DNA from: a virus
Lineage: Duplodnaviria > Caudoviricetes
DNA length: 64,000 nt
Direction: 5' to 3' (one strand)
Virus record (IMG/VR): IMGVR_UViG_3300030100_000603
Location: 13,132-77,131 of that record
How positions within the stretch are numbered: the stretch's first letter is position 1; the number at the start of each line of letters is the position of its first letter. The notes below the pieces were generated by a model. It worked only from the letters and a program-made list of their open reading frames with translations. It was not told the origin of the DNA and ran no database searches. The translations under genes were made by a program, and so were the position numbers. Below, piece by piece: positions 3,439-64,000 of the stretch.

Positions 3439-3518
3439 ATTCTGGTAACATAGAATAAGTAGTGAAGGGGTCGTTAATCGGCCCCACATTTTCAGAAATT
3501 AATAGGAGAGAATATTTA

Positions 3519-5747
3519 ATGGAAAACGTTGGTGTTATTGGTAAAGAAATGATGTCCGAATCTAAGTTCTACACTGGTTATTCTCGCTGGATTGACGAGA
3601 AGAATCGTTATGAAACTTGGGATGAATCAGTTAAGCGTGTAATGGACATGCACCGTGAAATGTTCCAAGAGGTAATGACACCGGAGCTTGAGGAAATGAT
3701 TTCCTTTGCTGAAAAACAATATAAAAAGAAAACGGTTCTTGGGGCACAGCGAGCATTGCAATTTGGTGGACCTCAGATTTTCAAACATATGGCCCGAATG
3801 TTTAACTGTGTTTCTGGTCATGTGAGTCGTCCTGAGTTCTTTCAGGAATGCATGTATCTTCTTCTTTGTGGTTGTGGTGTAGGTTTTAGTGTTCAGAATC
3901 AGCATATTGACCAACTACCTAAACTGAAACAGCGTCACCCGAAACGTTCCAAAGTATTTGTTATTCCTGATAGCATCGAGGGTTGGTCTGATGCTTACGG
4001 TGTGCTTATTTCAAGTTATCTTGAGGAAGATGCACCCTTCCCTGAATATCAAGGTTGCCATGTTGCATTTGATTTCAGTAAGATTCGACCCAAAGGTGCC
4101 TACATCAGTGGTGGGTTCAAGGCACCTGGTCCTGACGGCCTTCAGCAATCTCTGAACAAGTGTGAGAAACTTCTTGAAAATGCTGTAAGTAAGAGCAAGC
4201 AACCTGTAAAATTCAAGTCAATTGATGCTTATGATTTTGTAATGTTTATGGCGGATGCTGTTCTGTCTGGTGGTGTACGTCGTAGTGCTACTATCTGCAT
4301 GTTCAGCAAAGACGATGAAGAAATGCTTAATGCTAAGACTGGTAGCTGGTTCATTGATAACCCGCAACGTGGTCGTTCAAACAATTCAGTGATGCTCAAG
4401 CGAGATGAAGTTACTCGTGAAGAATGGGCTCACATTATGAAAAGTGTTAAGCAAGTTGGTGAACCGGGTTTCATCTTCACAAGTAATCTGGAACATACTT
4501 ATAATCCTTGTGTAGAAATTGGTAAACTTCCAGTAACCATTGACGGTATTCCCGGTTTCCAAGGTTGTAACCTTTGTGAAATTAATGGTTCAGCATGCAA
4601 TACGAAAGAAGATTTCGAAGATGCTTGTAAGGCAGCAGCTATTATTGGTACACTACAGGCAGCATATACTGATTTCCGTTATCTGTCGGATGCTACTAAG
4701 CGAATCTTTGAGCAGGAAGCGTTGATTGGTGTATCTATCACTGGTTGGATGAACAATCCTGAAGTGTTGTTTGACAAACAGAACATGATTGATGGGGCGC
4801 AACTTGTAAGGAAGATTAATCGTGAAGTAGCAGAAATGATCGGTATTAACCCTGCTGCCCGAACTACTTGTGTTAAGCCTTCAGGCAACGCATCTGTTCT
4901 TCTTGGTACTGCATCAGGGATTCATGGTGAACATGCTCCGATGTATTTCCGTAACGTTCAAATGAATGAGCAGGATGAAGTTCTGGAATTGATTCAACGT
5001 GAGAATCCGTCCATGGTTGAAACTTCTGTCTGGTCTAATACGGGTACTGACAAGGTTGTTAGTTTCCCGGTTGTTAGCCCAGAAGGTTCAATCTATAAGG
5101 ACGATCTGCTTGGTGTAAAACAACTTGAATATGTGAAATTGGCACAACAATATTGGGTTGAATACGGTACTGATGTTGATCTTTGTGTTGATCCAGCATT
5201 GCGCCATAACGTATCCAATACCATCACTGTTGATGATTGGGATGAGGTTGAGGAATATATCTATGAGAACCGTGAATGGTTCGCCGGTATTTCCCTTCTG
5301 AGTGCATTTGGTGATAAGGGATACCCCCAAGCACCTTTCACACAGGTATTCACCGCAGAAGATAATTTGAAGCGGTATGGTGATGCTTCCATGTTTGCTT
5401 CTGGATTGATTGTGGATGGTCTTCATGCCTTCAATCAGAACCTTTGGACAGCATGTGACACTGTGAACGGATGGGGTGAAAAACTTGACCCTGAGAAGTC
5501 TTCTGACCTTCTTAAGCGTGATTGGGTACGTCGTGCCAAGAAGTTTGCTGACAACTATTTTGATGGGGATATTATTGAGATGACTAATTGCTTGAAGGAT
5601 TGCTTCAACTTCCATAAATGGAAGACAATTGAACGTCAAATTAAGCCAATCAATTTTGCGAAGCAAATGGAGGAACGTTCGTATACTGAAATTGATACTA
5701 TGGGTGCAATGGCATGTTCTGGTGGGGCATGTGAGATCAACTTTTAA
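3519..5747 (+). CDS. nrdJ: Class II (adenosylcobalamin-dependent) monomeric ribonucleotide reductase
   Basis: YSRW..E..RYETWDESVKRV, GVGFSV, IPDSIEGW, DFSKIRPKGA, VRRSA, SNNSV, GEPG, NPCVEI, GCNL, VKPSG and C-terminal CSGGAC parallel the Lactobacillus RTPR; no NrdB partner nearby. Confidence 0.88.
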   Translation: MENVGVIGKEMMSESKFYTGYSRWIDEKNRYETWDESVKRVMDMHREMFQEVMTPELEEMISFAEKQYKKKTVLGAQRALQFGGPQIFKHMARMFNCVSGHVSRPEFFQECMYLLLCGCGVGFSVQNQHIDQLPKLKQRHPKRSKVFVIPDSIEGWSDAYGVLISSYLEEDAPFPEYQGCHVAFDFSKIRPKGAYISGGFKAPGPDGLQQSLNKCEKLLENAVSKSKQPVKFKSIDAYDFVMFMADAVLSGGVRRSATICMFSKDDEEMLNAKTGSWFIDNPQRGRSNNSVMLKRDEVTREEWAHIMKSVKQVGEPGFIFTSNLEHTYNPCVEIGKLPVTIDGIPGFQGCNLCEINGSACNTKEDFEDACKAAAIIGTLQAAYTDFRYLSDATKRIFEQEALIGVSITGWMNNPEVLFDKQNMIDGAQLVRKINREVAEMIGINPAARTTCVKPSGNASVLLGTASGIHGEHAPMYFRNVQMNEQDEVLELIQRENPSMVETSVWSNTGTDKVVSFPVVSPEGSIYKDDLLGVKQLEYVKLAQQYWVEYGTDVDLCVDPALRHNVSNTITVDDWDEVEEYIYENREWFAGISLLSAFGDKGYPQAPFTQVFTAEDNLKRYGDASMFASGLIVDGLHAFNQNLWTACDTVNGWGEKLDPEKSSDLLKRDWVRRAKKFADNYFDGDIIEMTNCLKDCFNFHKWKTIERQIKPINFAKQMEERSYTEIDTMGAMACSGGACEINF

Positions 5748-8714: not shown

Positions 8715-10445
8715 TTATTTCCACTTACCGAATACGAATACATCGGATTGAATGTTAACTGTAAGGCCCGAAATACCGCCTTCCTGAATCCAAATCCAAT
8801 TTAGATTAACTGATGTTGTATTTTTTCCAGAAACTTTCATAACGATGGCTGAATCAGGATTCGCACTTTGAACACTACCCAAAACAGAATAACCCCCGGT
8901 AAAAGCGATTGGGAAGGTCCAATTTTGAGGTTGGGATGTGCCTGTACCCAAAGATGAATTATAACAAACTTGGGAACCATCTGCGAGCCTTGTCCACCCA
9001 CCATCACTATTACTGCCACTTTCAACAATAGGATCACCACCAACAGAAGGCATCCCGGCAAAGTCAGGCCCACCATTAGAATTAATTGGGTAGCTGTCAA
9101 CCGCATTCCAAGAATCACCATCGTAAATTTTAAGTTTATTGTCAGCAGTTGACCAAAAGAGAGCGCCCACCATAAGAGGGTTGCCGTCGTTATCTAAGCT
9201 GGGGTCAGAACTCTTGCTTCCGAGGTATCTATCATCAAATTGATCATACAGCGCAAATGTGTTACTTTCACTTGTAGCGGCATCATTCGCGCTGTTCGCA
9301 GCATTAGTCTCACTTGTGGAGGCGTTTCCTGCTGAAATGGCGGACTGATTTGCATGGTACTTGGCTGAATAACCAACACCATCCACTGTACTGCCAAGTT
9401 TAGTGGCCCAATCCTCAGAAAGATCAGCACTTGAAGAGGCATTATTTTCACTAGTGGCAGCATTGCTTGCGCTTGTAGCAGCCGCAGAAGCGGAGTTAGC
9501 TGCATTGGTTTCGGATGTAGAAGCAGCACTGGCACTGTTAGCGGCACTAGTTTCACTATCAGCAGCATTACTAGCAGATGTTGCAGCAGCGTTTTCTGAA
9601 CCAAGAGCATTATTAGCAGATGTTGCAGCATTCGCTTCACTGGTTGCAGCATTGTTCTCAGAAGTCTCAGCAGCACTCTCAGACAAGGCAGCAGCAGTAG
9701 CACTGGCATCAGCATTCTGTGCAAATGTATCTGCCTCAGAAGCTTTATTAGAGGCTACGTTGGCGTTGAAGGATGCAGTATCAGCGAAACCACTAGCAGT
9801 TTGAGAGTAGTATTTAGCGGAGTATTCACTACCATCAACCGTATCAGATGTTTTAATTGCCCAATCTTGAGATGTAGAAGCACTAGTTGCTGAACTGGAA
9901 GCAGAGGATGCCGCAGCTTGAGCATGGTACTTGGCAGAGTATTCACTACCATCAACGGTATCACCAAGCTTAATTGCCCAATCTTCTGCCAGTTGGGCAT
10001 TTACCTGAGTCTGTTGAACGGCAGTACTGACCTCACCACCGATTTCCTGTGAAAGACCCCAGACGATAGTACCACTAGCAAAAGTGTCACCAAGAGTAAT
10101 GGTATTTGTACCATCAACAGTGAAGTTGAAGTAACGATAAGCACCACTGCCCTCATCAATGTATACAGAAATACCAGAGGTCTGAACGCTGTTGAATGTT
10201 ACATTTGTTTGATTTGAACCAAGTGTTACTGATTCACTGATTGGTGCCAATGTACCAGCAGTAATCTGAGACTGAAGGTTAGCAATAGCGGTCGCAGCAG
10301 TGGGTACAGGACCGTTATCCGTATTAACAAATGTTTCTTCAGGGCCATTTACAATATTAAACAGAAGATCGGATGCACCCTCCGCTTTTGTTGACGCAGC
10401 ATCGGCCCTGGACGCAGCATCATTCAATACATCAATATATGACAT
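8715..10445 (-). CDS. Tail fibre with Ala/Ser-rich stalk
   Basis: SA/NAATS low-complexity repeats, three DWAxKxxxTVDGxxYSAKY repeats, FDDRYLGSKSSDPSLDNDG motif, C-terminal ESGSN..GGWTRLADGSQVC domain. Confidence 0.8.
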   Translation of the reverse strand: MSYIDVLNDAASRADAASTKAEGASDLLFNIVNGPEETFVNTDNGPVPTAATAIANLQSQITAGTLAPISESVTLGSNQTNVTFNSVQTSGISVYIDEGSGAYRYFNFTVDGTNTITLGDTFASGTIVWGLSQEIGGEVSTAVQQTQVNAQLAEDWAIKLGDTVDGSEYSAKYHAQAAASSASSSATSASTSQDWAIKTSDTVDGSEYSAKYYSQTASGFADTASFNANVASNKASEADTFAQNADASATAAALSESAAETSENNAATSEANAATSANNALGSENAAATSASNAADSETSAANSASAASTSETNAANSASAAATSASNAATSENNASSSADLSEDWATKLGSTVDGVGYSAKYHANQSAISAGNASTSETNAANSANDAATSESNTFALYDQFDDRYLGSKSSDPSLDNDGNPLMVGALFWSTADNKLKIYDGDSWNAVDSYPINSNGGPDFAGMPSVGGDPIVESGSNSDGGWTRLADGSQVCYNSSLGTGTSQPQNWTFPIAFTGGYSVLGSVQSANPDSAIVMKVSGKNTTSVNLNWIWIQEGGISGLTVNIQSDVFVFGKWK

Positions 10446-51985: not shown

Positions 51986-52173
51986 TGACCTGTGAAACAC
52001 AACGTATCATCGAAGCACAAGATAACTTCTTCAAGTGGTGCATGCAGAATCTACCAGTAGGAAGAGCAGTATCAAGGAAGGACATCGAATCAATCAACAG
52101 GGTAACACATTACAACCTTTTAGACAGAGAAAGACTGTTCGGAAGTAGCCAGTATAGGTGGTATCAGGTATGA
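51985..52173 (+). CDS. Small hypothetical protein
   Basis: TAATG coupling; truncated paralog at 50969-51034. Confidence 0.6.
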   Translation: MTCETQRIIEAQDNFFKWCMQNLPVGRAVSRKDIESINRVTHYNLLDRERLFGSSQYRWYQV

Positions 52174-52724
52174 TTATTGACGAAGAAACAGGGGAGATTT
52201 ATGATTATGAAGTAGTCAAGTATGAACACGCAGAAGAAGCCCAACCACTACTGTTCCTTTGTGATGTGAAATCAATGGATGATATGGATGACTTCATGAA
52301 GGTAATGGTAGACAGAAGGAAGATCAGAGGAAGTAACACTGATGACCTGTTGAGATTCTTTGAGGGATGCTTGAGTAATGAGATACTGGACAAGGAATTC
52401 TTCCATGCAGAGGAAACAATGACAACAACACAGTATCGCATCCTTAGAACCCTCTGTGACATGGTACAGTACAGGAATGTATTCATAACCACACAGGAAG
52501 AACTCTGTAGAAGATTGGGTTGTGTTCAGAATAACCTGAAGAGAAAGTTACGGCAGGTAGAACCATACATCAACACCTACACCAGCAGAGATGGCATAAG
52601 AAGGGGTGAAATCAAAGTAGAAGTCAATCCCAAGTTTGTCTACATCTGTGAGATGGGTTATTACGACATGAGTAGGAATAAGGCGATTGACGAATGGTTT
52701 TACATCAAAATCACGAAAAATTGA
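52170..52724 (+). CDS. Winged-helix protein resembling RepL-type replication proteins
   Basis: IDEETGEI N-terminus; YRNVFITTQEELCRRLG....LKRKL HTH; VNPKFVY. Confidence 0.5.
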   Translation: MIIDEETGEIYDYEVVKYEHAEEAQPLLFLCDVKSMDDMDDFMKVMVDRRKIRGSNTDDLLRFFEGCLSNEILDKEFFHAEETMTTTQYRILRTLCDMVQYRNVFITTQEELCRRLGCVQNNLKRKLRQVEPYINTYTSRDGIRRGEIKVEVNPKFVYICEMGYYDMSRNKAIDEWFYIKITKN

Positions 52725-53250
52725 TGTAAGAATCTTTCTGCAACCCGCATGAACAGGGGAAAGCTATAATTTCCTTTATGAGTAAGGAATGAGATAAGAA
52801 GGTACTCATCTGGTCGGTCTAGTATGGATCATTATGGTCTGTACTATTCCGGCCATTATTTTTGGCATAGTTTTATGGGGGTAGACTAAGGTATAACTGT
52901 TTTAGGTCGGAGTTAATGAAGACCTAACTCCAAACGATGTTATACTATGGTCTATATGATGTATTGTTAACCAATAGTCTAAAGGTTATTGTATAGTTTT
53001 AGTTAATACTATGGTATAACACTGGAAAAACCTCAAAATTTAAAATAAAAAATTTGGATTCAGGTTTTGGGGCCTTTTACAAAACCGACCCCAATGGAAA
53101 AAGGGTACGTTTTTAAAAAATGATTGTCGGTTCTTATTCTGGCCATCCATCCGCCAGCCTACCCTGCTTGAAATCTGGGCAAAAGTCCAATAAATTCTTC
53201 CTATCGCCCGATACTTAGCAGCCTAATAGTACCTGGCCGCATTATTCGAA

Positions 53251-53340
53251 GACTAATCGTTCGCAGCCTAATGTTTATCACCTTAATCATTCACTTGCTA
53301 ACAGTTAACAGTCTAACAATTATCATCCTAACGAATATAT
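53251..53340. repeat. Degenerate 15-bp tandem array, six units
   Basis: YTAAY at 53253, 53268, 53283, 53298, 53313 and 53328. Confidence 0.75.
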
Positions 53341-53826
53341 CGGCATATATGCATATGGGCATATGTTTACATACAAATATTCGCATGAATTAATTAACGT
53401 CACAATATAAGAGGTAGCTAACGCAACCAATCGGACAGTATATTCTAATACAGTAATCAACGCATAGATCATACATAGAAGACTAATGTAATATATCATG
53501 ATATATGGATATGGGTAAGTAATGTAATTGCTTACATTAGGATATTATTACGGTCTAATGTACTCGATGAGAATTTAGGTCAAGCTAATGTAATCGTAGC
53601 TTATACATTGATGAATGATACAGAAATTTATGTATTAGTAGGCGCGTATATGTCTGACAAGTAATATTGGACAATATCACCATAACCTTAATTTAGAACA
53701 TTACGATGTAATCATACACAACGGGACACAATATCAGAACATTACGATGTAATCATATAGGAATGAGATTCATTATCACCAGGGTGGATCATAGTTATGG
53801 CAAAAAGTCAAGCATTAAATACAGAC

Positions 53827-53855
53827 AAAAAAAAAGACCACCTGATAAGGTGGCC
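53827..53855 (-). terminator. Rho-independent terminator ending the early operon
   Basis: GGCCACC-ttatca-GGTGGTC followed by T9 on the minus strand. Confidence 0.85.
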
Positions 53856-53878
53856 GATTACTTATATTGTTTATACTG

Positions 53879-54253
53879 TTAAATCGTTATCCCGTATTGT
53901 TTACTAATAACTACCCTGTCAGCATCATGTACTTTTAAACTGTTATTATCAGCGTAAACAAAAGAATCAAACTTATAGGGATTATATGTCACCTTATGCT
54001 CAAGATTAAAAGTTAGTTCATTTACACTTACAATATGGCCAATGATTCCCGCATGAACATTCTTTTTTCTTTCAGCTAATACCCTTTGCCTTCCTTTCTC
54101 GTTTACCTTGAATGTACAGTCTGTTAGTACAATGTTATCAGCATGGCCGATTACTTTACCGTAATCCGGTTGTGACATTGATTTAATACTGAAAGTTTTC
54201 TTATGCAAGTTAAAGTATATGAATACCCTTTTGCCATAGTTGATAGTCTTCAT
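53879..54253 (-). CDS. Conserved phage protein (YFNLHKK family)
   Basis: RVFIYFNLHKKTFSIK...FKVNE.GRQRVL.E.KKNVHAG. Confidence 0.75.
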   Translation of the reverse strand: MKTINYGKRVFIYFNLHKKTFSIKSMSQPDYGKVIGHADNIVLTDCTFKVNEKGRQRVLAERKKNVHAGIIGHIVSVNELTFNLEHKVTYNPYKFDSFVYADNNSLKVHDADRVVISKQYGITI

Positions 54254-54532
54254 TGTTGATTACCTTTAGTGTTTTGTTGATTGCCTTCCATTGTACGCTT
54301 TAGGTATTCGATATATTCATACATGGTATTTAGTCTCCCCAATAACTGGGTGTAGTTGATACAATGCACCAATCTTGTCCAATTGCTTTTGTAGAATTGA
54401 TGCTGATTTAATGTTGTGGCGTTCTATCATGTGCAATTTATTAGTAACGGGACATTGTACAGTGAAAGTAAACATGGTCTTTTATCCTGTCTGATTTAAG
54501 TTTAGGTAGTGCCATCCGTGGCATGATTCATA

Positions 54533-55267
54533 TTATCCAGCCTTGGCGATGATATCTGCTTTCTTTTTAGCTGTACCATGCGCCCTAAAGCCAATTACAT
54601 AATCACGTTTGCTATCTGCACAAATCCCACAATTACTGCACGTTACCTTGTCGGATTTTTCAGCGGGGCAAGCGACCACCTTTACGCCTTCCACATGTTG
54701 AACGTTCGGCGCGTCAATTGGCAAAAGTGTAACAGTAGGCAATGCATACCGCTTTACAATGTCCACGGCTTCGATTGTATTGTTGGCACTTACGTTGATT
54801 GTAAATCCCCTGCTATTAGAGTTGCCAATTGCCGGAATGTTGGCGTGAGTTAATGCATGGTGCGTATAGGTAAATCCTTTTTTACCCTTGTTCGCCCTGA
54901 TAAGATTATCCAATGCCACGCTATCGAGTGTAATGTTGTCTTCCAGCGTAGGCATATCGCCCGCTTCATTATGCCGCCATAATTGACCCTTGGGGAGCGA
55001 TTTTACGTTATCGCACAATCCGGCCCAATCGGTGATATTTTTACCTGTAGCGTTTTCGTCATTCAATTTGCGCCAGTGGATGGCAGTGTTACCAAATCCG
55101 GCATAACACTTAGGCAGCTTGCCTTGTGTGGTCAAAGTTTCACCATTATCATCCTTATTCAGCGGACAAGTAATGCTGCAAGAATTGGCGCTGGTAGTGG
55201 TCACCGGAATAGGTCCGGTTTTCTTATTGGAAGACTTGCGAACAAAACGGATATTAAGAGTTTTCAT
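54533..55267 (-). CDS. Gp88-like / radical-SAM-like Cys-rich protein
   Basis: S.NKKTG, SCSITCPL...CYA, LWRHNEAGD, FTYTH, GFTINVS, C-terminal CPA......TCSNCGIC...IGF.AHG. Confidence 0.65.
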   Translation of the reverse strand: MKTLNIRFVRKSSNKKTGPIPVTTTSANSCSITCPLNKDDNGETLTTQGKLPKCYAGFGNTAIHWRKLNDENATGKNITDWAGLCDNVKSLPKGQLWRHNEAGDMPTLEDNITLDSVALDNLIRANKGKKGFTYTHHALTHANIPAIGNSNSRGFTINVSANNTIEAVDIVKRYALPTVTLLPIDAPNVQHVEGVKVVACPAEKSDKVTCSNCGICADSKRDYVIGFRAHGTAKKKADIIAKAG

Positions 55268-55323
55268 AATTAATTAACCATTAAAGATTAATGTTTTATG
55301 CCATCCTTGGCATTATATCCTAT

Positions 55324-57380
55324 TTAAAACACTTGAAACAAAACCTTTTCATTATCGTGGTATATCACCATTGTGTTATCCTGCAAATACTCAATAACTT
55401 GTTCGACCACTTCTTCATAATCAATCGGTCCATTATCCTCAATAATATCGATACCGTAATTGGCAATAATGTCGTCAATAGTATCCTCCGTAAAATCACA
55501 ACAAAGGGCGATAACGTCACACTCAATACGCTGTCCAGATGATTCTTCCATTTCTTCAAGATGTTCAAACAATGCCTTTAGACCATCGATAGAAAAGTTA
55601 TCCATACGATCCATCATGCGGAATTGTTCAATAAACATTGTTTCAGTAACGTTAATATGCATTGTATCACCTTTTGCCTTTTGCTATGTGTATGCTGCTA
55701 ATTCTAGCTGCCATCCGTGGCATTGTCCAATACTTTTTATCCGGTATACCATGCTGTAGCTTCGTGGATATCGTCAAATGCTCCACAATATAGGTCTGAT
55801 GCAATGTCGATAATAATGCTTTCTGTGAAACCTCGTTCAAGTAATGTTTCAATTTCACCTTTTGTCAATACCTTATCCCCAAGGTAATATGCAATTGACT
55901 CATGAATGCTGCTGATGTGACGTTCGGTGATTTTCATGATTCTACCCTTTCCTTTTCGTTGGTTGGTATGGGCATTTTAGCGTGATACCCAGCACGAGTC
56001 AAACTTTTATTTTTCAGCATTCATTTTTTTATAGTAGTGTTGGACGATGGATTCCAGCCAGTTAGTGGAATGTAATTCAACCCCCGTCTTTTGTTGAATG
56101 TTGAGCAAGTCGCTGGCGACCAACCAAATTTTACCAGCGCGATCATTAACCAAATCTAATTCGCTGAACATCTGGTATTGAACGGCGAGACTACGGGCGT
56201 TTGCTTTTGAAATTGCCATGATGTTTTACCTTTAGTTGCCTTGCGTTTGATTGATTACCCTATGTCTTGAATTATAGACCATATGGGCAATGCGTCAAGC
56301 GGTCGGACAATAAATTTTCATCTTTTTTTGTCAGCATTCATTAACACCAGGTAATGACAATCATTCTCATCTACCTGGCCATAACTGGTTTTTCCCATTC
56401 TGTCAAGTATTGGGCATTGCCTTGTGTCGCTTGGTAGTAAATCGCACGACATGGCGTCATGCCCTTTTGCAGTGAAAGCGTCCCTAACGATGCCGCTATA
56501 TTCGCATGCAACTAATACCCTCATGGTGGTCACCTGTTATCAATCATCAAAAGAATAACTAACCCAATGGTCAAGCTCAGTTACATGAACTTCTATATAA
56601 TCGCATGGACCATCGGTTTCATCATCAATTAACACTACATCGCCGGATTCATATAGTGTCCCTACTCGCCATATTTCACCGTTATAATATACAGTGTCGC
56701 CATAATTCAATTGATTGAAGTTAGTAATTCGTTTATGAAACATTTTAATGACCCCCATCAAGGATAATCAAAAGGATAATCGCCGCCTTTAGTGCTTCGT
56801 CTTCGTTTTCGTGCACCATGCCGCCAGCATTTTCTCCGTCGTCATAAATCCAGTATTCGCCGCAAGCTGATTTAAACACTGCACCCATATACAGTCCCCA
56901 TGCATCATAAACACATTCATCGTTAGTATTATATTCGTAAGTATGACCGTCGAATTGAATTTTCATGATTGTCACCTTTTGCCGTTTGGTTACCCTATGC
57001 CTTGAATTCTAGTGCCATCCATGGCGCTGGTCAAGGATTTATTTGCCGGAAAAGGCAGTAGTGTTTACTTCAAGGTTTTCCATGGTTTGGAAGAAAAGCA
57101 CGAGTGACCCAATAATGCCGCTTGCGATTGTTGCCGCAATTGTTCCTGATATCCATGCGAAAGTAAAGAAAATCAGAACTGTCAGGCATGCGATAAGGAA
57201 AACGCTGATAGTCATATCAAATACGAATTGCGATTTGTCAAGTTTCCACACTATGGGATCAGCTTGTGTCCGCTTTGCCAGTTTAAGGCATACTGCGAAC
57301 GTTGCGGCATAGTCGTCGCCATCTTGAATGGTCGCGCGAGTCATAGCGTGGGCTTTACGGAAGAGTTCAGAATTAGTCAT
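55324..57380 (-). CDS. Small early genes (55324-55662, 55737-55937, 56007-56219, 56540-56761, 56745-56975, 57039-57380)
   Basis: Acidic ORFs with AAAAGGT-type RBSs, several directly downstream of strong promoters. Confidence 0.65.
56271..56298 (-). promoter_or_regulatory. Strong sigma70 early promoter
   Basis: TTGACG-N16-TATAAT, AT-rich upstream tract, conserved leader TCAAGACATAGGGTAA. Confidence 0.8.
56318..56524 (-). pseudogene. Truncated DNA cytosine methyltransferase-like gene
   Basis: MRVLVACEYSGIVRDAF.AKGHDAMSCDLLP N-terminus; similarity stops there and the HPPC catalytic motif is absent. Confidence 0.7.
56350..56368. promoter_or_regulatory. Fur-box-like site (best of four)
   Basis: GGTAATGACAATCATTCTC matches GATAATGATAATCATTATC at 16/19. 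Other copies at 53759-53777, 57485-57503 and 57698-57716 match at 14/19 (the last scored on the minus strand). Confidence 0.6.
57006..57034 (-). promoter_or_regulatory. sigma70 early promoter with palindromic operator in the spacer
   Basis: TTGACC-N17-TAGAAT; the spacer contains GCGCCATGGATGGCAC. Confidence 0.75.
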
Positions 57381-57418
57381 GGTGGCGTTTCCTTGTGTTC
57401 GTTTACCCTACGCCTTGA

Positions 57419-57446
57419 ATTATAGGCCATAGGGACAAGGCGTCAA
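57419..57446 (-). promoter_or_regulatory. Strong sigma70 early promoter
   Basis: TTGACG-N16-TATAAT, upstream T-tracts, leader TCAAGGCGTAGGGTAA. Confidence 0.8.
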
Positions 57447-57783
57447 GCGATGGGCGAAAAAAATACGAAAAAATTTAGGTCCAGGTGAATGATAATTATT
57501 CGCATCGAGGTGGTGGCGACCATATATAGGATCGCGCGCGTAAATAGCAAAAGCGCCTGGTAATGTCAAGGTGAAAAATCGAGTTTTTTGTGTTGTATTT
57601 TCTGGCGTAGTCTTCTATAATCAAGATACAGGATAAGCGACTAGGTGGGTTGGATTCCCACGAGACAAACGGGGAGAGTGGGCGATTGTTAGGGGATAAG
57701 AATGATTATCATTCAATAAAAACTTCTTGCAATTCTGGGATAATGCGATATAGTGGAAAGAATGCCATAACGGATTTTGAGCA

Positions 57784-57816
57784 CTATCCACAGAGTTACT
57801 AACAGATTTATCCACA
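57784..57816 (+). promoter_or_regulatory. Two DnaA-box-like sites in a 24-bp-period direct repeat
   Basis: TTATCCACA (perfect) at 57808-57816 and CTATCCACA at 57784-57792, both continuing GAGTT. Confidence 0.6.
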
Positions 57817-57849
57817 GAGTTCGGATAACGAACAAAAGGGGGTCCATTA

Positions 57850-57938
57850 GCGTGCACTAAAGTAGTGATAAGCGTGTACTAATATAGGATATTAGGATGC
57901 ACTAAATTAGGTCACGCCATGCACTAATACAGTGAACG
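57850..57938. repeat. Iteron-like array, four units of 22-23 bp
   Basis: TGYACTAA at 57853, 57875, 57898 and 57920. Confidence 0.7.
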
Positions 57939-58141
57939 CCGAAATGAGAATAAGTCGCATTCAGGGAAGAAAATTAGGAATCTCTGTATATAAACCTCCA
58001 CCGATGAAGCTGGCAAACTTAATGTAGCGATGAAGCTGAAATTCTTGATGTGTAGATAAATCTGTCAAACTTGACGTAAAAATATAGGGCCCTCGTCGAA
58101 GCTGTCAAACTGGACCTTGAGAACCCTATTTCTCTATCATT

Positions 58142-61950: not shown

Positions 61951-63333
61951 TTAATCCTTAATCTCACTACCCTTTACGGTTTTATAAGCTTTGAGGAATA
62001 AAATAACATCTGCCTCAGAACTCCCCGCTTGATAACGTACAAGGTCATTACTCTCTACGTCCATTACCTCAACAGTACCATTCGGCTCAAAAGAAATTGA
62101 TACCTTAAGGTCTTTTGACAGTTCCATAATGTAGTCAAAAATGTCAGCGCCCATATCACATGTACCTATGAAAGTTTTGATCGAAAATCATGTTGCTCGG
62201 GTTTTCCTTTGATACCAACTGCACCCGAACAAACTGACCGTTCTCCGTACAGACAAGATCATATCGCTGAATTACGTCGTCATACGTCCCACGCTTGCCG
62301 TCAGTGAAGATACGTCGCCATGGAAGCTCGTACCACAGGTTCTCCAATGCATCGTCTATCGCCTTGTATGTAGTTTCTGATACCTCAATTGGTTCTTTCA
62401 TATATCATCCCTCAAGAAAGTAGTAGGTTGCTGCCTCTTCTTCACAGTACAGTGCCGTGCTGATACCACTCTTCGCCTTGATATCCCCCTCATCGTTATG
62501 GTCGATAAGACCAGGGTAATTACGCATCTTCTTATACAGAACTACTTCGATTGCATCTCCCCTTGCCATTGAATTATTGGTTGCTTCACGAATTTCAGTT
62601 ACTTCAGCATCCATCACAACAATGAATCCACCACCTTTCTTGCGTTCAATCTCTTCGTTGTTCAGACGAGGATTGTAGTATGTACTGTTGTCTGCAAGAA
62701 AGTGGTCACTCATTGCCTTGCGCCCATGACTGTCGAGTGAATTACTAGGTGCGTGCTGCGGGTGAAACTCTGCGTTGAAAGTAGTCATTTCTTAGTCCTC
62801 ATCGGTTTCAAACATCTCAGGATGTGCTTTCAGCATATCATGTGCATCCCGATTAATCAAGGTAATTTTATCAGTTTTTCCATCAATCAACTGCAACACT
62901 GTCTGGATACCGCCATGCGGTTGTTGAGCATCCGTATACGTCAGTAGTACATTATCAGGTTTCGGACTCGACCGCACCTTTTCAAACGTTTCCTGATAGC
63001 ATTCATTGACAGGTTTCAGGTTGATGAGTACAGACACCAGTTCGTCATCGTCATATACACATAGATAACTGAACATGTCAACAAACATCTTCTGTAGATC
63101 ATAACTCATAGGTTCAACTCCACATCATCTTCGGGTTTAAAGTTATTGTATAGGTTGCGAATTGCAATGTCAACAGCCTTGTTGTGTGCTGTATTCAGTC
63201 CCCAAAAGACCAACCAGACAATCAACCAGGGCCAGAATAGCACAGTGGCTATAAAATGCAAGACATGCCATGTAGATTTCCTGTGCTTCGTATTCAGTTC
63301 ATGTATTGCAGCATCACGTTTCATCTCATTCAC
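61951..63333 (-). CDS. Small hypothetical genes (61951-62154, 62156-62401, 62405-62788, 62792-63109, 63106-63333 membrane)
   Basis: Tightly packed ORFs with RBSs. Confidence 0.6.
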
Positions 63334-63974
63334 CTCCCAATGTGTTCACCGTAAAGATACACCAAATCAGGGTTGCTGTCAAGAAATTCTTCCAAAGTTT
63401 GGTTTGATTTTTCCAAATTATGCTCAGAGTACATTGGAATAAGGTTATCAAGACCATTTATAACTGCCGGGTCTTCAACACCATCTTCAACATACCTTGA
63501 CACAGGATAAATATGATCAATGTGCCAGGACACACCATGGTTCTCCCATGTCATATCTTCAAGCATTTTGTTTTCCATGTCAAACATGAATTCTTCGACA
63601 GAATAATCTAATGTCTCAAAAGTTGATTCGGTCTTGCCTTGTTTTGTCAAACTTAACACACGGGTAACCATATTACGGATTACACGAGATGTTTTACACC
63701 TTTCGTCTGTAGAATAACGGTTCCGGCAGTATTCATTTATCCTTTCACGATTCTCTTGGTAGTATTGTTTCGCATATTCAAGTATTTGTTCACGATTCTC
63801 TTTATAGTATTGTTTCGCATATTCAAGTATTTTATCACGATTCTCTTGATGGTATTGTTTTTTGGACTCAAGTATTTGTTCACGATTCTCTTGGTAGTAT
63901 TGTTTCCTGTACTCTAATACTTTATCGTAATTCTCTTGTTTGTATTTTTTACTTTTTATTAAATCACAAGGCAA
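63330..63974 (-). mobile_element. HNH endonuclease with repeated EY.KQYYQENR.QIL segment
   Basis: MENKMLEDMTWENHGVSWHIDHIYPV...NLIPMY...NLEKSN; close paralog of 47115-47784. Confidence 0.82.
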
Positions 63975-64000
63975 ACACGTCCCATTGACAACATATCTAA

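Follow-up and report, generated by a model that had tools for sequence, protein, structure and literature searches.

The window analysed here, 64,000 nucleotides in length, covers bases 13132-77131 of the 77,131-bp IMG/VR virus record IMGVR_UViG_3300030100_000603, which is rated complete and represents an uncultured contractile-tailed phage with sheath, portal, major head and terminase genes and a tape measure protein. The phage is of virulent type, and the region described below bears no signs of lysogeny. Between 57380 and 53879 the genes run leftward, are small and mostly without assigned function, and are driven by strong sigma-70-type promoters. Among and beside them lie short palindromes resembling the operator of Fur, the iron-sensing repressor of the host, which is a dimer loaded with Fe2+. 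Downstream of these boxes we found small early open reading frames (ORFs), DUF7227, an L5 gp82-like protein and HNH; no metal-transport or toxin gene was present among the annotated neighbours, and no Fur homologue encoded by the phage was found.

Fur-type sites at early promoters and origin-like DNA

Sites were scored against the 19-bp dyad GATAATGATAATCATTATC, the 18-position register AATGATAATnATTATCATT and the 7-1-7 core TGATAATnATTATCA, a gamma-proteobacterial consensus that may not be that of the host. Calibration was by real operators, in place of a full position-weight matrix from curated Fur sites. An earlier reading of the DNA from its letters alone (the sequence-only reading) had named four Fur-box-like sites, and all four were recovered at the same positions with the same scores, one at 16/19 and three at 14/19; a fifth, weak site was added (Table 1). 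The 7-1-7 core score of the original four is 12/14.

The immediate surroundings of site 2 also agreed with that reading. The site is nested in an inverted repeat, CCAGGTA (56347-56353) and TACCTGG (56372-56378), and falls within the 3' tail of an ORF (56318-56533) encoding 71 aa. Similarity of this ORF to a DNA-methyltransferase profile of 247 positions is confined to the first ~45 residues, so that it is a truncated gene, the "dead gene" of the earlier description. Counted from their starts in the 19-bp register, site 2 is 51 bp and site 3 is 38 bp upstream of the -35 hexamer of an early promoter, and our promoter scan gave the same distances as had been claimed. The promoter module is duplicated (74-nt repeat, 77% identity) and a CCAGGT flank is common to both sites, suggesting that sites 2 and 3 are probably paralogous and derived from one duplication of the module. 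CCWGG flanks are found on sites 1-3; a larger motif was considered and rejected as their source, the shared ancestry of sites 2 and 3 being the best explanation.

Sites 3 and 4 form an inverted pair, 86% complementary and 190 bp apart, with an A/T tract between site 3 and its promoter. The distance from the end of site 4 to the -35 of a downstream, rightward promoter-like sequence, P2, is 13 bp, and the site contains the -10 of a weak leftward promoter-like site, TTGCAA-N16-GATAAT (9/12). Relative to the inferred transcription starts, the box centres lie at about -98 (site 2), -85 (site 3) and -57 (site 4 to P2), and by box asymmetry each of these three sites points to the downstream promoter. 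Site 1 is located within a 1.15-kb non-coding stretch (52725-53878), directly after two 22-bp repeats. The boxes had been described as bracketing the early genes, which is not the best account of the anatomy: sites 3, 4 and 5 surround the non-coding DnaA-box and iteron region, site 1 follows a gene for a RepL-like protein, and sites 2 and 3 belong to one duplicated module.

Table 1. Boxes, promoters and replication-related features in the window
Feature	Position	Strand	Basis
Site 1, Fur-type box AATGAGATTCATTATCACC	53762..53780	-	14/18; 14/19 at 53759-53777; weakest of the four
Site 2, Fur-type box, minus-strand reading GATGAGAATGATTGTCATT	56353..56371	-	15/18; 16/19 at 56350-56368
Site 3, Fur-type box	57488..57506	-	15/18; 14/19 at 57485-57503
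Site 4, Fur-type box GATAAGAATGATTATCATT then CAATAAAAAC	57695..57713	+	15/18; 14/19 at 57698-57716
Site 5, Fur-type box (new, weak) AATGAGAATAAGTCGCATT	57943..57961	+	14/18; between 22-bp and 26-bp repeat arrays
Early promoter TTGACG-N16-TATAAT, module copy 1, conserved downstream leader	56271..56298	-	Promoter scan; 74-nt repeat
Early promoter TTGACG-N16-TATAAT, module copy 2, drives 113-aa gene 57039-57380	57419..57446	-	Promoter scan; repeat analysis
Putative P1, TTGTAT-N17-TATAAT	57593..57621	+	Alignment with rV5-like promoter preceding box; by eye, below scan threshold
Promoter-like P2, TTGCAA-N16-TATAGT	57727..57754	+	Promoter scan; toward DnaA-box/iteron region, against neighbouring gene flow
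Origin-like non-coding DNA	57780..58119		DnaA boxes (perfect TTATCCACA at 57808); 22-bp repeats 57846-57940; 26-bp repeats 58002-58119
RepL-like winged-helix protein, 188 aa, candidate replication initiator	52158..52724	+	Language-model and structure look-alikes; lead only

The clustering of the sites was compared with several backgrounds. Nine sequences in the whole window match at least 14 of the 19 positions, and five of them fall in one 4-kb stretch; the fifth of these (56763-56781) is a coding direct repeat and probably a chance match. Local Markov-1 and Markov-3 models expect 0.33-0.63 sites, and the simulations reached four in at most 0.5% of runs and never five. When whole genomes were simulated, five sites in one 4-kb window never occurred under Markov-1 and occurred in 0.5% under Markov-3. 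The sequence AATGA-N3-TCATT is present three times in 77 kb, always in the 4-kb region, and the 7-1-7 core at 12/14 or better is matched at exactly four sites in the 77-kb genome, compared with 1.3 expected. An empirical background of ~65 matches per Mb at 14/18 or better was obtained from 755 kb of unrelated phage loci, so that ~0.3 would be expected in the region where five were seen.

These figures bear on the simplest alternative, that the sites are a product of chance in AT-rich non-coding sequence together with one local duplication. The dyad count by itself is not significant once all possible dyads are corrected for, sites 2 and 3 with their common flanks may represent one event, and sites 1 and 5 are weak. 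However, local composition does not generate the observed number, the four sites are the sole matches in the genome at the core threshold, the empirical background is more than 15-fold lower, and a profile built from other phages recovers three of the sites as its top matches (see below). A chance origin was thus already disfavoured, and we regard it as highly improbable.

A conserved box in other virulent phages

When site 4 was used in a BLAST search of GenBank phages, the matches fell in intergenic DNA of many virulent myoviruses, rV5-like and others. The box that they share, AATGAGAATGATTATCATT, was found in 263 GenBank phage records, comprising rV5-like, phAPEC8-like, Aeromonas and Vibrio myoviruses. 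Klebsiella phage KB57, E. coli phages Av-05, rV5 and ESCO13, Salmonella phage SSE121, and Erwinia, Pectobacterium and Aeromonas phages all carry it within a large non-coding gap. The box matches the Fur consensus at 15-17 of 18 positions overall and at 16-17 in coliphages, occurs in one to three tandem copies ~29 bp apart, and is the most conserved alignment block across these phages. Site 4 is the best match to this box in the window.

The layout around the family box recurs. A first promoter is separated by a ~70-nt leader from one or more boxes; an A tract comes next and then, at a distance of 13-18 bp, a second promoter in the same direction, which is followed by iteron-like repeats. The whole module points opposite to the neighbouring genes. 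Counterparts of both P1 and P2 were found by scan in SSE121 and KB57. The order in the window is alike: an aligned -10 at 57616-57621, GACAAAC within GAGACAAAC, site 4, an A tract, the promoter at 57727-57754, and then DnaA boxes and repeats. GAGACAAAC stands 33 nt before the box, the same distance as in SSE121. P2 and repeats follow the box in the window, whereas P1 falls below the scan threshold and is placed by alignment only. The module of Vequintavirinae, Stephanstirmvirinae and Plateaulakevirus resembles that of the window in its box, A tract, promoter 13-18 bp on toward repeats, GAGACAAAC 33 nt before the box and promoter ~80-100 bp before it, which is only putative in the window. It differs in that only the box is statistically recovered in the window, the iterons are unrelated in sequence, and the window phage has DnaA boxes at this location. 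No described function of this module was found in the literature.

An nhmmer profile of the box, GAGAATGATTATCATTCAA, was built from eight other phages without the window phage. Its top three matches in the genome were site 4 (plus strand, E 0.0085), site 3 (minus strand, E 0.064) and site 2 (minus strand, E 0.21), and these matches come via the box alone. Site 5 was matched at E 16, which is not significant on its own, and site 1 was not recovered.

Two further observations were made on the rV5-like phages. At two loci (stretch positions 1575-1790), three iteron-like repeats of ~64 bp, AAAAATTTTTTCGCG ... CAAATACGAT ... CGATCGAGAACC, follow the box and P2 and may mark an unannotated origin. 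In Av-05 a leftward promoter, TTGAAT-N18-TAGAAT, is overlapped by a Fur-type box; the scan misses it in SSE121 and KB57, so this is not a general feature.

Boxes were also present elsewhere in phage DNA. Another non-coding gap of Av-05 contains three more, Vibrio phage 1.121.O carries a tandem array of three, and a jumbo-phage fragment has clusters of boxes upstream of early promoters. In the T5-like phage S114, at least six distinct boxes lie beside the annotated injection-stop signal (10 matches with 6-bp-shifted pairs merged), at 226-361, 700 and 1014 of the examined stretch. In T5 itself, boxes at 9552, 9656 (17/18), 9691 and 9697 (span 9552-9715) are inside the injection-stop region and adjoin a DnaA box. 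The boxes of these T5-like phages are near-perfect and often form 6-bp-shifted pairs. Overlapping boxes shifted by 6 bp were found in T5, S114 and ESCO13; such overlaps are the Fur site clusters (PMC2189734) typical of strong Fur operators. T5 has in addition a Fur-type box at 231-249 and a perfect 7-1-7 core inside its dmp gene.

The T5 injection-stop region has been described as containing repeats, palindromes and DnaA boxes, the palindromes being read as possible restriction-type cleavage sites, with Fur unmentioned (10.1101/866236). The T5 region resembles that of the window in being large and non-coding and in having DnaA boxes, direct repeats, palindromes and Fur-type boxes. It differs in its link to two-step DNA injection, a process that is not known for the window phage.

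An alternative is that the palindromes act as RNA hairpins in transcripts, in processing, stability or attenuation, rather than as DNA bound by a protein. The box lies ~75-95 nt downstream of P1 in the relatives and probably in the window too, site 2 is in a transcribed mRNA tail within a longer inverted repeat, and RNAalifold kept the box hairpin alone as conserved structure. However, this hairpin has six A/U-rich pairs without compensatory changes, indicating that the sequence is kept and not the pairing; it is not followed by a U-tract, and no Rfam family was matched. Furthermore, no transcription is expected across site 3 or the T5 injection-stop boxes, given their positions upstream of promoters or behind terminators. 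We consider a role as RNA to be very unlikely.

Host Fur as the probable binder

We then compared the sites with proven operators. In E. coli K-12 the footprinted fepA-fes, fepD-entS and fepB-entC regions score 13-16/19, 14-15/18 and 11-13/14, and since these ent-fep operators fall in the same range, the phage sites score like bona fide operators. No false match at 14/18 or better was found outside the three Fur-controlled regions in a 26-kb E. coli enterobactin stretch. When the coliphage box was searched in 5,426 E. coli genomes, the best matches were in the promoters of mntH and sitA, classic metal transporters under Fur plus MntR. At mntH the match is exact over 18 nt and adjoins the MntR palindrome, the Fur box of sitA is near-identical, and in both promoters the Fur box is distinct from the adjacent MntR palindrome. 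mntH is among listed Fur sites (PMC2189734), and its dual control by Fur and MntR has been cited (PMC3788343).

The identification as Fur boxes was therefore considerably strengthened by operator-grade scores, the phage box family, the mntH and sitA matches and the absence of a phage Fur homologue. We propose that the sites are probably host Fur operators at early promoters and origin-like DNA. The boxes would belong to a family kept by many virulent gamma-proteobacterial phages in large non-coding regions of origin-like or injection-stop character.

Several points weigh against this proposal. A gamma-proteobacterial Fur preference of the host is assumed from ArfA and the hosts of relatives only, and Fur binding at the phage boxes is a prediction from their sequence. 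The window sites are of middle strength (14-15/18) and single, their 6-bp-shifted registers scoring only 7-12/18, and if sites 2 and 3 go back to one duplication there are fewer independent events. Their centres, at about -98 and -85, are out of helical phase with each other. No site overlaps the -35 or -10 of the strong early promoters, and classical Fur repression of those promoters is therefore unlikely.

The sites are in excess over the Markov simulations and the 755-kb phage background, but an unbiased scan of all 5-Nx-5 dyads ranked the Fur-type dyad only joint fifth (P 7e-4, uncorrected), so that significance hinges on the prior Fur hypothesis together with clustering. The box is kept in other phage families, but no close relative of the window phage was found in which the sites could be followed. 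Megablast and blastn against GenBank phages found no DNA-level relative, and a search of IMG/VR with two neighbouring proteins and the promoter-leader pattern found no close one. Among metagenome contigs the best relative reached only 51% identity, and relatives of the sheath protein (61-76%) were short contigs of the structural region only. The BLAST matches of site 4 were individually near chance (E 0.003-10), though all fell on one conserved element. Homology of the leader with rV5-like phages was statistically rejected, a leader-only profile finding nothing in the genome; the box is thus common to the families, and homology of the rest is only suggestive.

The proposal that host Fur binds the boxes has to be set against two other kinds of binder. 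The first is a phage-encoded dimeric DNA-binding protein, an early regulator or origin-binding protein, to whose operators the likeness to Fur boxes would be incidental. The palindromic boxes, their tandem arrays of ~29-bp period in the relatives, which are iteron- or operator-like, the adjoining iterons and RepL-like gene, and the many small early ORFs without known function are all consistent with such a protein. Nevertheless, Pfam and PHROG scans of ~25 neighbouring proteins showed no DNA-binding domain, the RepL-like lead aside, and this RepL-like protein has no counterpart in Av-05. A comparison of the phage ORFs with the whole Av-05 genome revealed nothing in common beyond structural and replication proteins, HNH and a single protein of 119 aa. 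The latter, the sole small non-structural protein shared with Av-05, is present in 17 records compared with 263 for the box. Among the proteins compared, no phage protein is distributed with the box. Furthermore, a 17/18 match to the host Fur consensus across T5-like, rV5-like, Aeromonas and Vibrio phages is unexpected for a phage-specific site. A phage-encoded binder is unlikely on these grounds, and fewer assumptions are needed if the binder is a host factor that Enterobacterales, Aeromonas and Vibrio have in common.

That factor might be another host protein with a similar AT-rich dyad, for instance Zur or another paralogue of the Fur family, or else a nucleoid protein. The binding preferences of the host are assumed ones, the boxes of the Fur family are alike among themselves, and the flanks GAATGA...TCATTC depart consistently from the classical GAT...ATC ends. 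However, the 9-1-9 register of the Fur box itself accounts for this departure. By reading, site 3 fits the Zur consensus at 11/18 and that of Fur at 15/18, the ARG box needs TGAAT-N4-ATTCA where the spacing here is 7, and the IHF motif WATCAA is unmet. The matches in E. coli are the mntH and sitA Fur boxes, separate from the MntR palindromes, and the window has no MntR-type box. The ARG box, Zur, IHF and MntR, all compared by reading, were rejected as poor fits, and another host protein is distinctly unlikely as the binder.

If host Fur is the binder, Fe-Fur bound upstream of promoters would change their output. Site 4 would act at about -57 of a rightward promoter that fires into DnaA boxes and iterons, and site 3, its inverted partner 190 bp away, would act upstream of a strong leftward early promoter. 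Site 2 would be a duplicated copy of the site 3 arrangement, one operon on, and sites 1 and 5 would be weaker copies, by the RepL-like gene and within the repeat arrays, respectively. Fur might activate in class-I-type or upstream fashion, for which V. cholerae ompT is a precedent, or counteract silencing by excluding H-NS from AT-rich DNA entering the cell, for which E. coli ftnA is a precedent; such exclusion would suit a phage. Alternatively, it might block UP-element contacts, or amplified genomes in hundreds of copies might titrate it, which is physically plausible. Both alternatives of the sequence-only reading, iron gating of early transcription and a Fur decoy, are possible.

Upstream sites of this kind are known from bacterial genes. 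Activating or anti-silencing Fur sites lie at -90 of V. cholerae ompT, at about -200 of Salmonella hilD, and at E. coli ftnA, where Fur displaces H-NS (PMC3788343). They are Fur boxes of normal sequence far upstream, and the positions in the window (about -57, -85 and -98) are in a comparable range; their effects have been shown experimentally, while binding and the sign of any effect in the window are read from position and sequence. In comparison with E. coli mntH, sitABCD and ent-fep, the window sites share the 19-bp dyad and 7-1-7 core and score like ent-fep. The chromosomal operators overlap the -35 or -10 of metal-uptake promoters, often as 6-bp-shifted clusters. In contrast, the window boxes are single, lie 13-54 bp upstream of a -35 or in promoter-less non-coding DNA, and have no metal-related gene downstream.

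Host Fur boxes on phage DNA are also known from temperate-phage cargo. On Stx1 phages, stx1 is a cargo gene with a Fur box. Lambdoid coliphages carry sitABCD cargo with a Fur box (PMC6969025). These cargo boxes regulate a moron useful to the lysogen, whereas those in the window are at early promoters and origin-like DNA without iron-related cargo. E. coli 2013C-3342 has a lambdoid prophage in which a Fur box with a full 18/18 match lies between the lysis and DUF1441/terminase genes (~1503-1521 of the stretch), away from metal-related cargo.

In the literature, subscription journals not covered, Fur boxes were found only on temperate-phage cargo and none on early, origin or injection-stop DNA of virulent phages. 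This is in line with the earlier statement that no system of this kind is known to have been described for a lytic phage, and the Fur-type boxes of T5-like and rV5-like phages have apparently been unremarked so far. A wider proposition, which is possible but which we put forward with some doubt, is that virulent phages (T5-like, rV5-like, phAPEC8-like, some Aeromonas and Vibrio myoviruses and the window phage) commonly place host Fur operators in non-coding DNA of DNA entry, replication start or early transcription, iron-loaded Fur being a host factor of the lytic cycle or being titrated. If so, the iron status of the host would be a direct input to lytic development, or its iron regulon would be disturbed by the phage. 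This would bear on phage-host dynamics in iron-limited seas and infected tissues, on phage therapy under nutritional immunity, and on the long-unsolved mechanism of the T5 injection-stop region. T5 and rV5-type coliphages carry the box and infect a host with a fully characterised Fur, which makes the idea directly testable in model phages.

Other features of the phage genome

An HNH-domain ORF spans the ends of the record, running on the minus strand through 3-230 of an end stretch and 63330-63998 of the window, and the 77-kb map is therefore circular or circularly permuted as assembled. The structural proteins are at most ~40-45% identical to those of any GenBank phage, with ~40% identity to Pseudomonas, Erwinia and Hafnia myoviruses. 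A PagL-like protein was considered as a clue to the host and had no match in species genomes.

The ribonucleotide reductase (3462-5747, plus strand) contains a B12-dependent (class II) insertion domain and is followed by a DUF1289/Cys-rich protein. No iron-containing small subunit is visible near it, in keeping with the iron-free enzyme of the sequence-only reading. The link drawn there between the boxes and HxH tail proteins is circumstantial.

The RepL-like protein is without a Pfam or PHROG match. The 1.15 kb without ORFs that follows its gene is rich in repeats, including the 22-bp AGAACATTACGATGTAATCATA at 53695 and 53736 and several CTAATGTAAT-type motifs at 53483-53615. This stretch may be a second, RepL-type origin and might be served by the protein. 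Inside the leader of putative P1, GTGGGTTGGATTCCCAC (57647-57663) resembles a tRNA T-arm and could be a tRNA remnant or a chance likeness; ARAGORN found no tRNA in the window. Finally, the most over-represented dyad of the genome is the palindrome TGCCAnGGATGGCA (54510, 55299, 55709 and 57012). It occupies the -35/-10 spacer of several leftward early promoters (minus strand, ~55701-55729 and 57006-57034) and could be the mark of a promoter class specific to the phage or serve as an operator in early shut-off.

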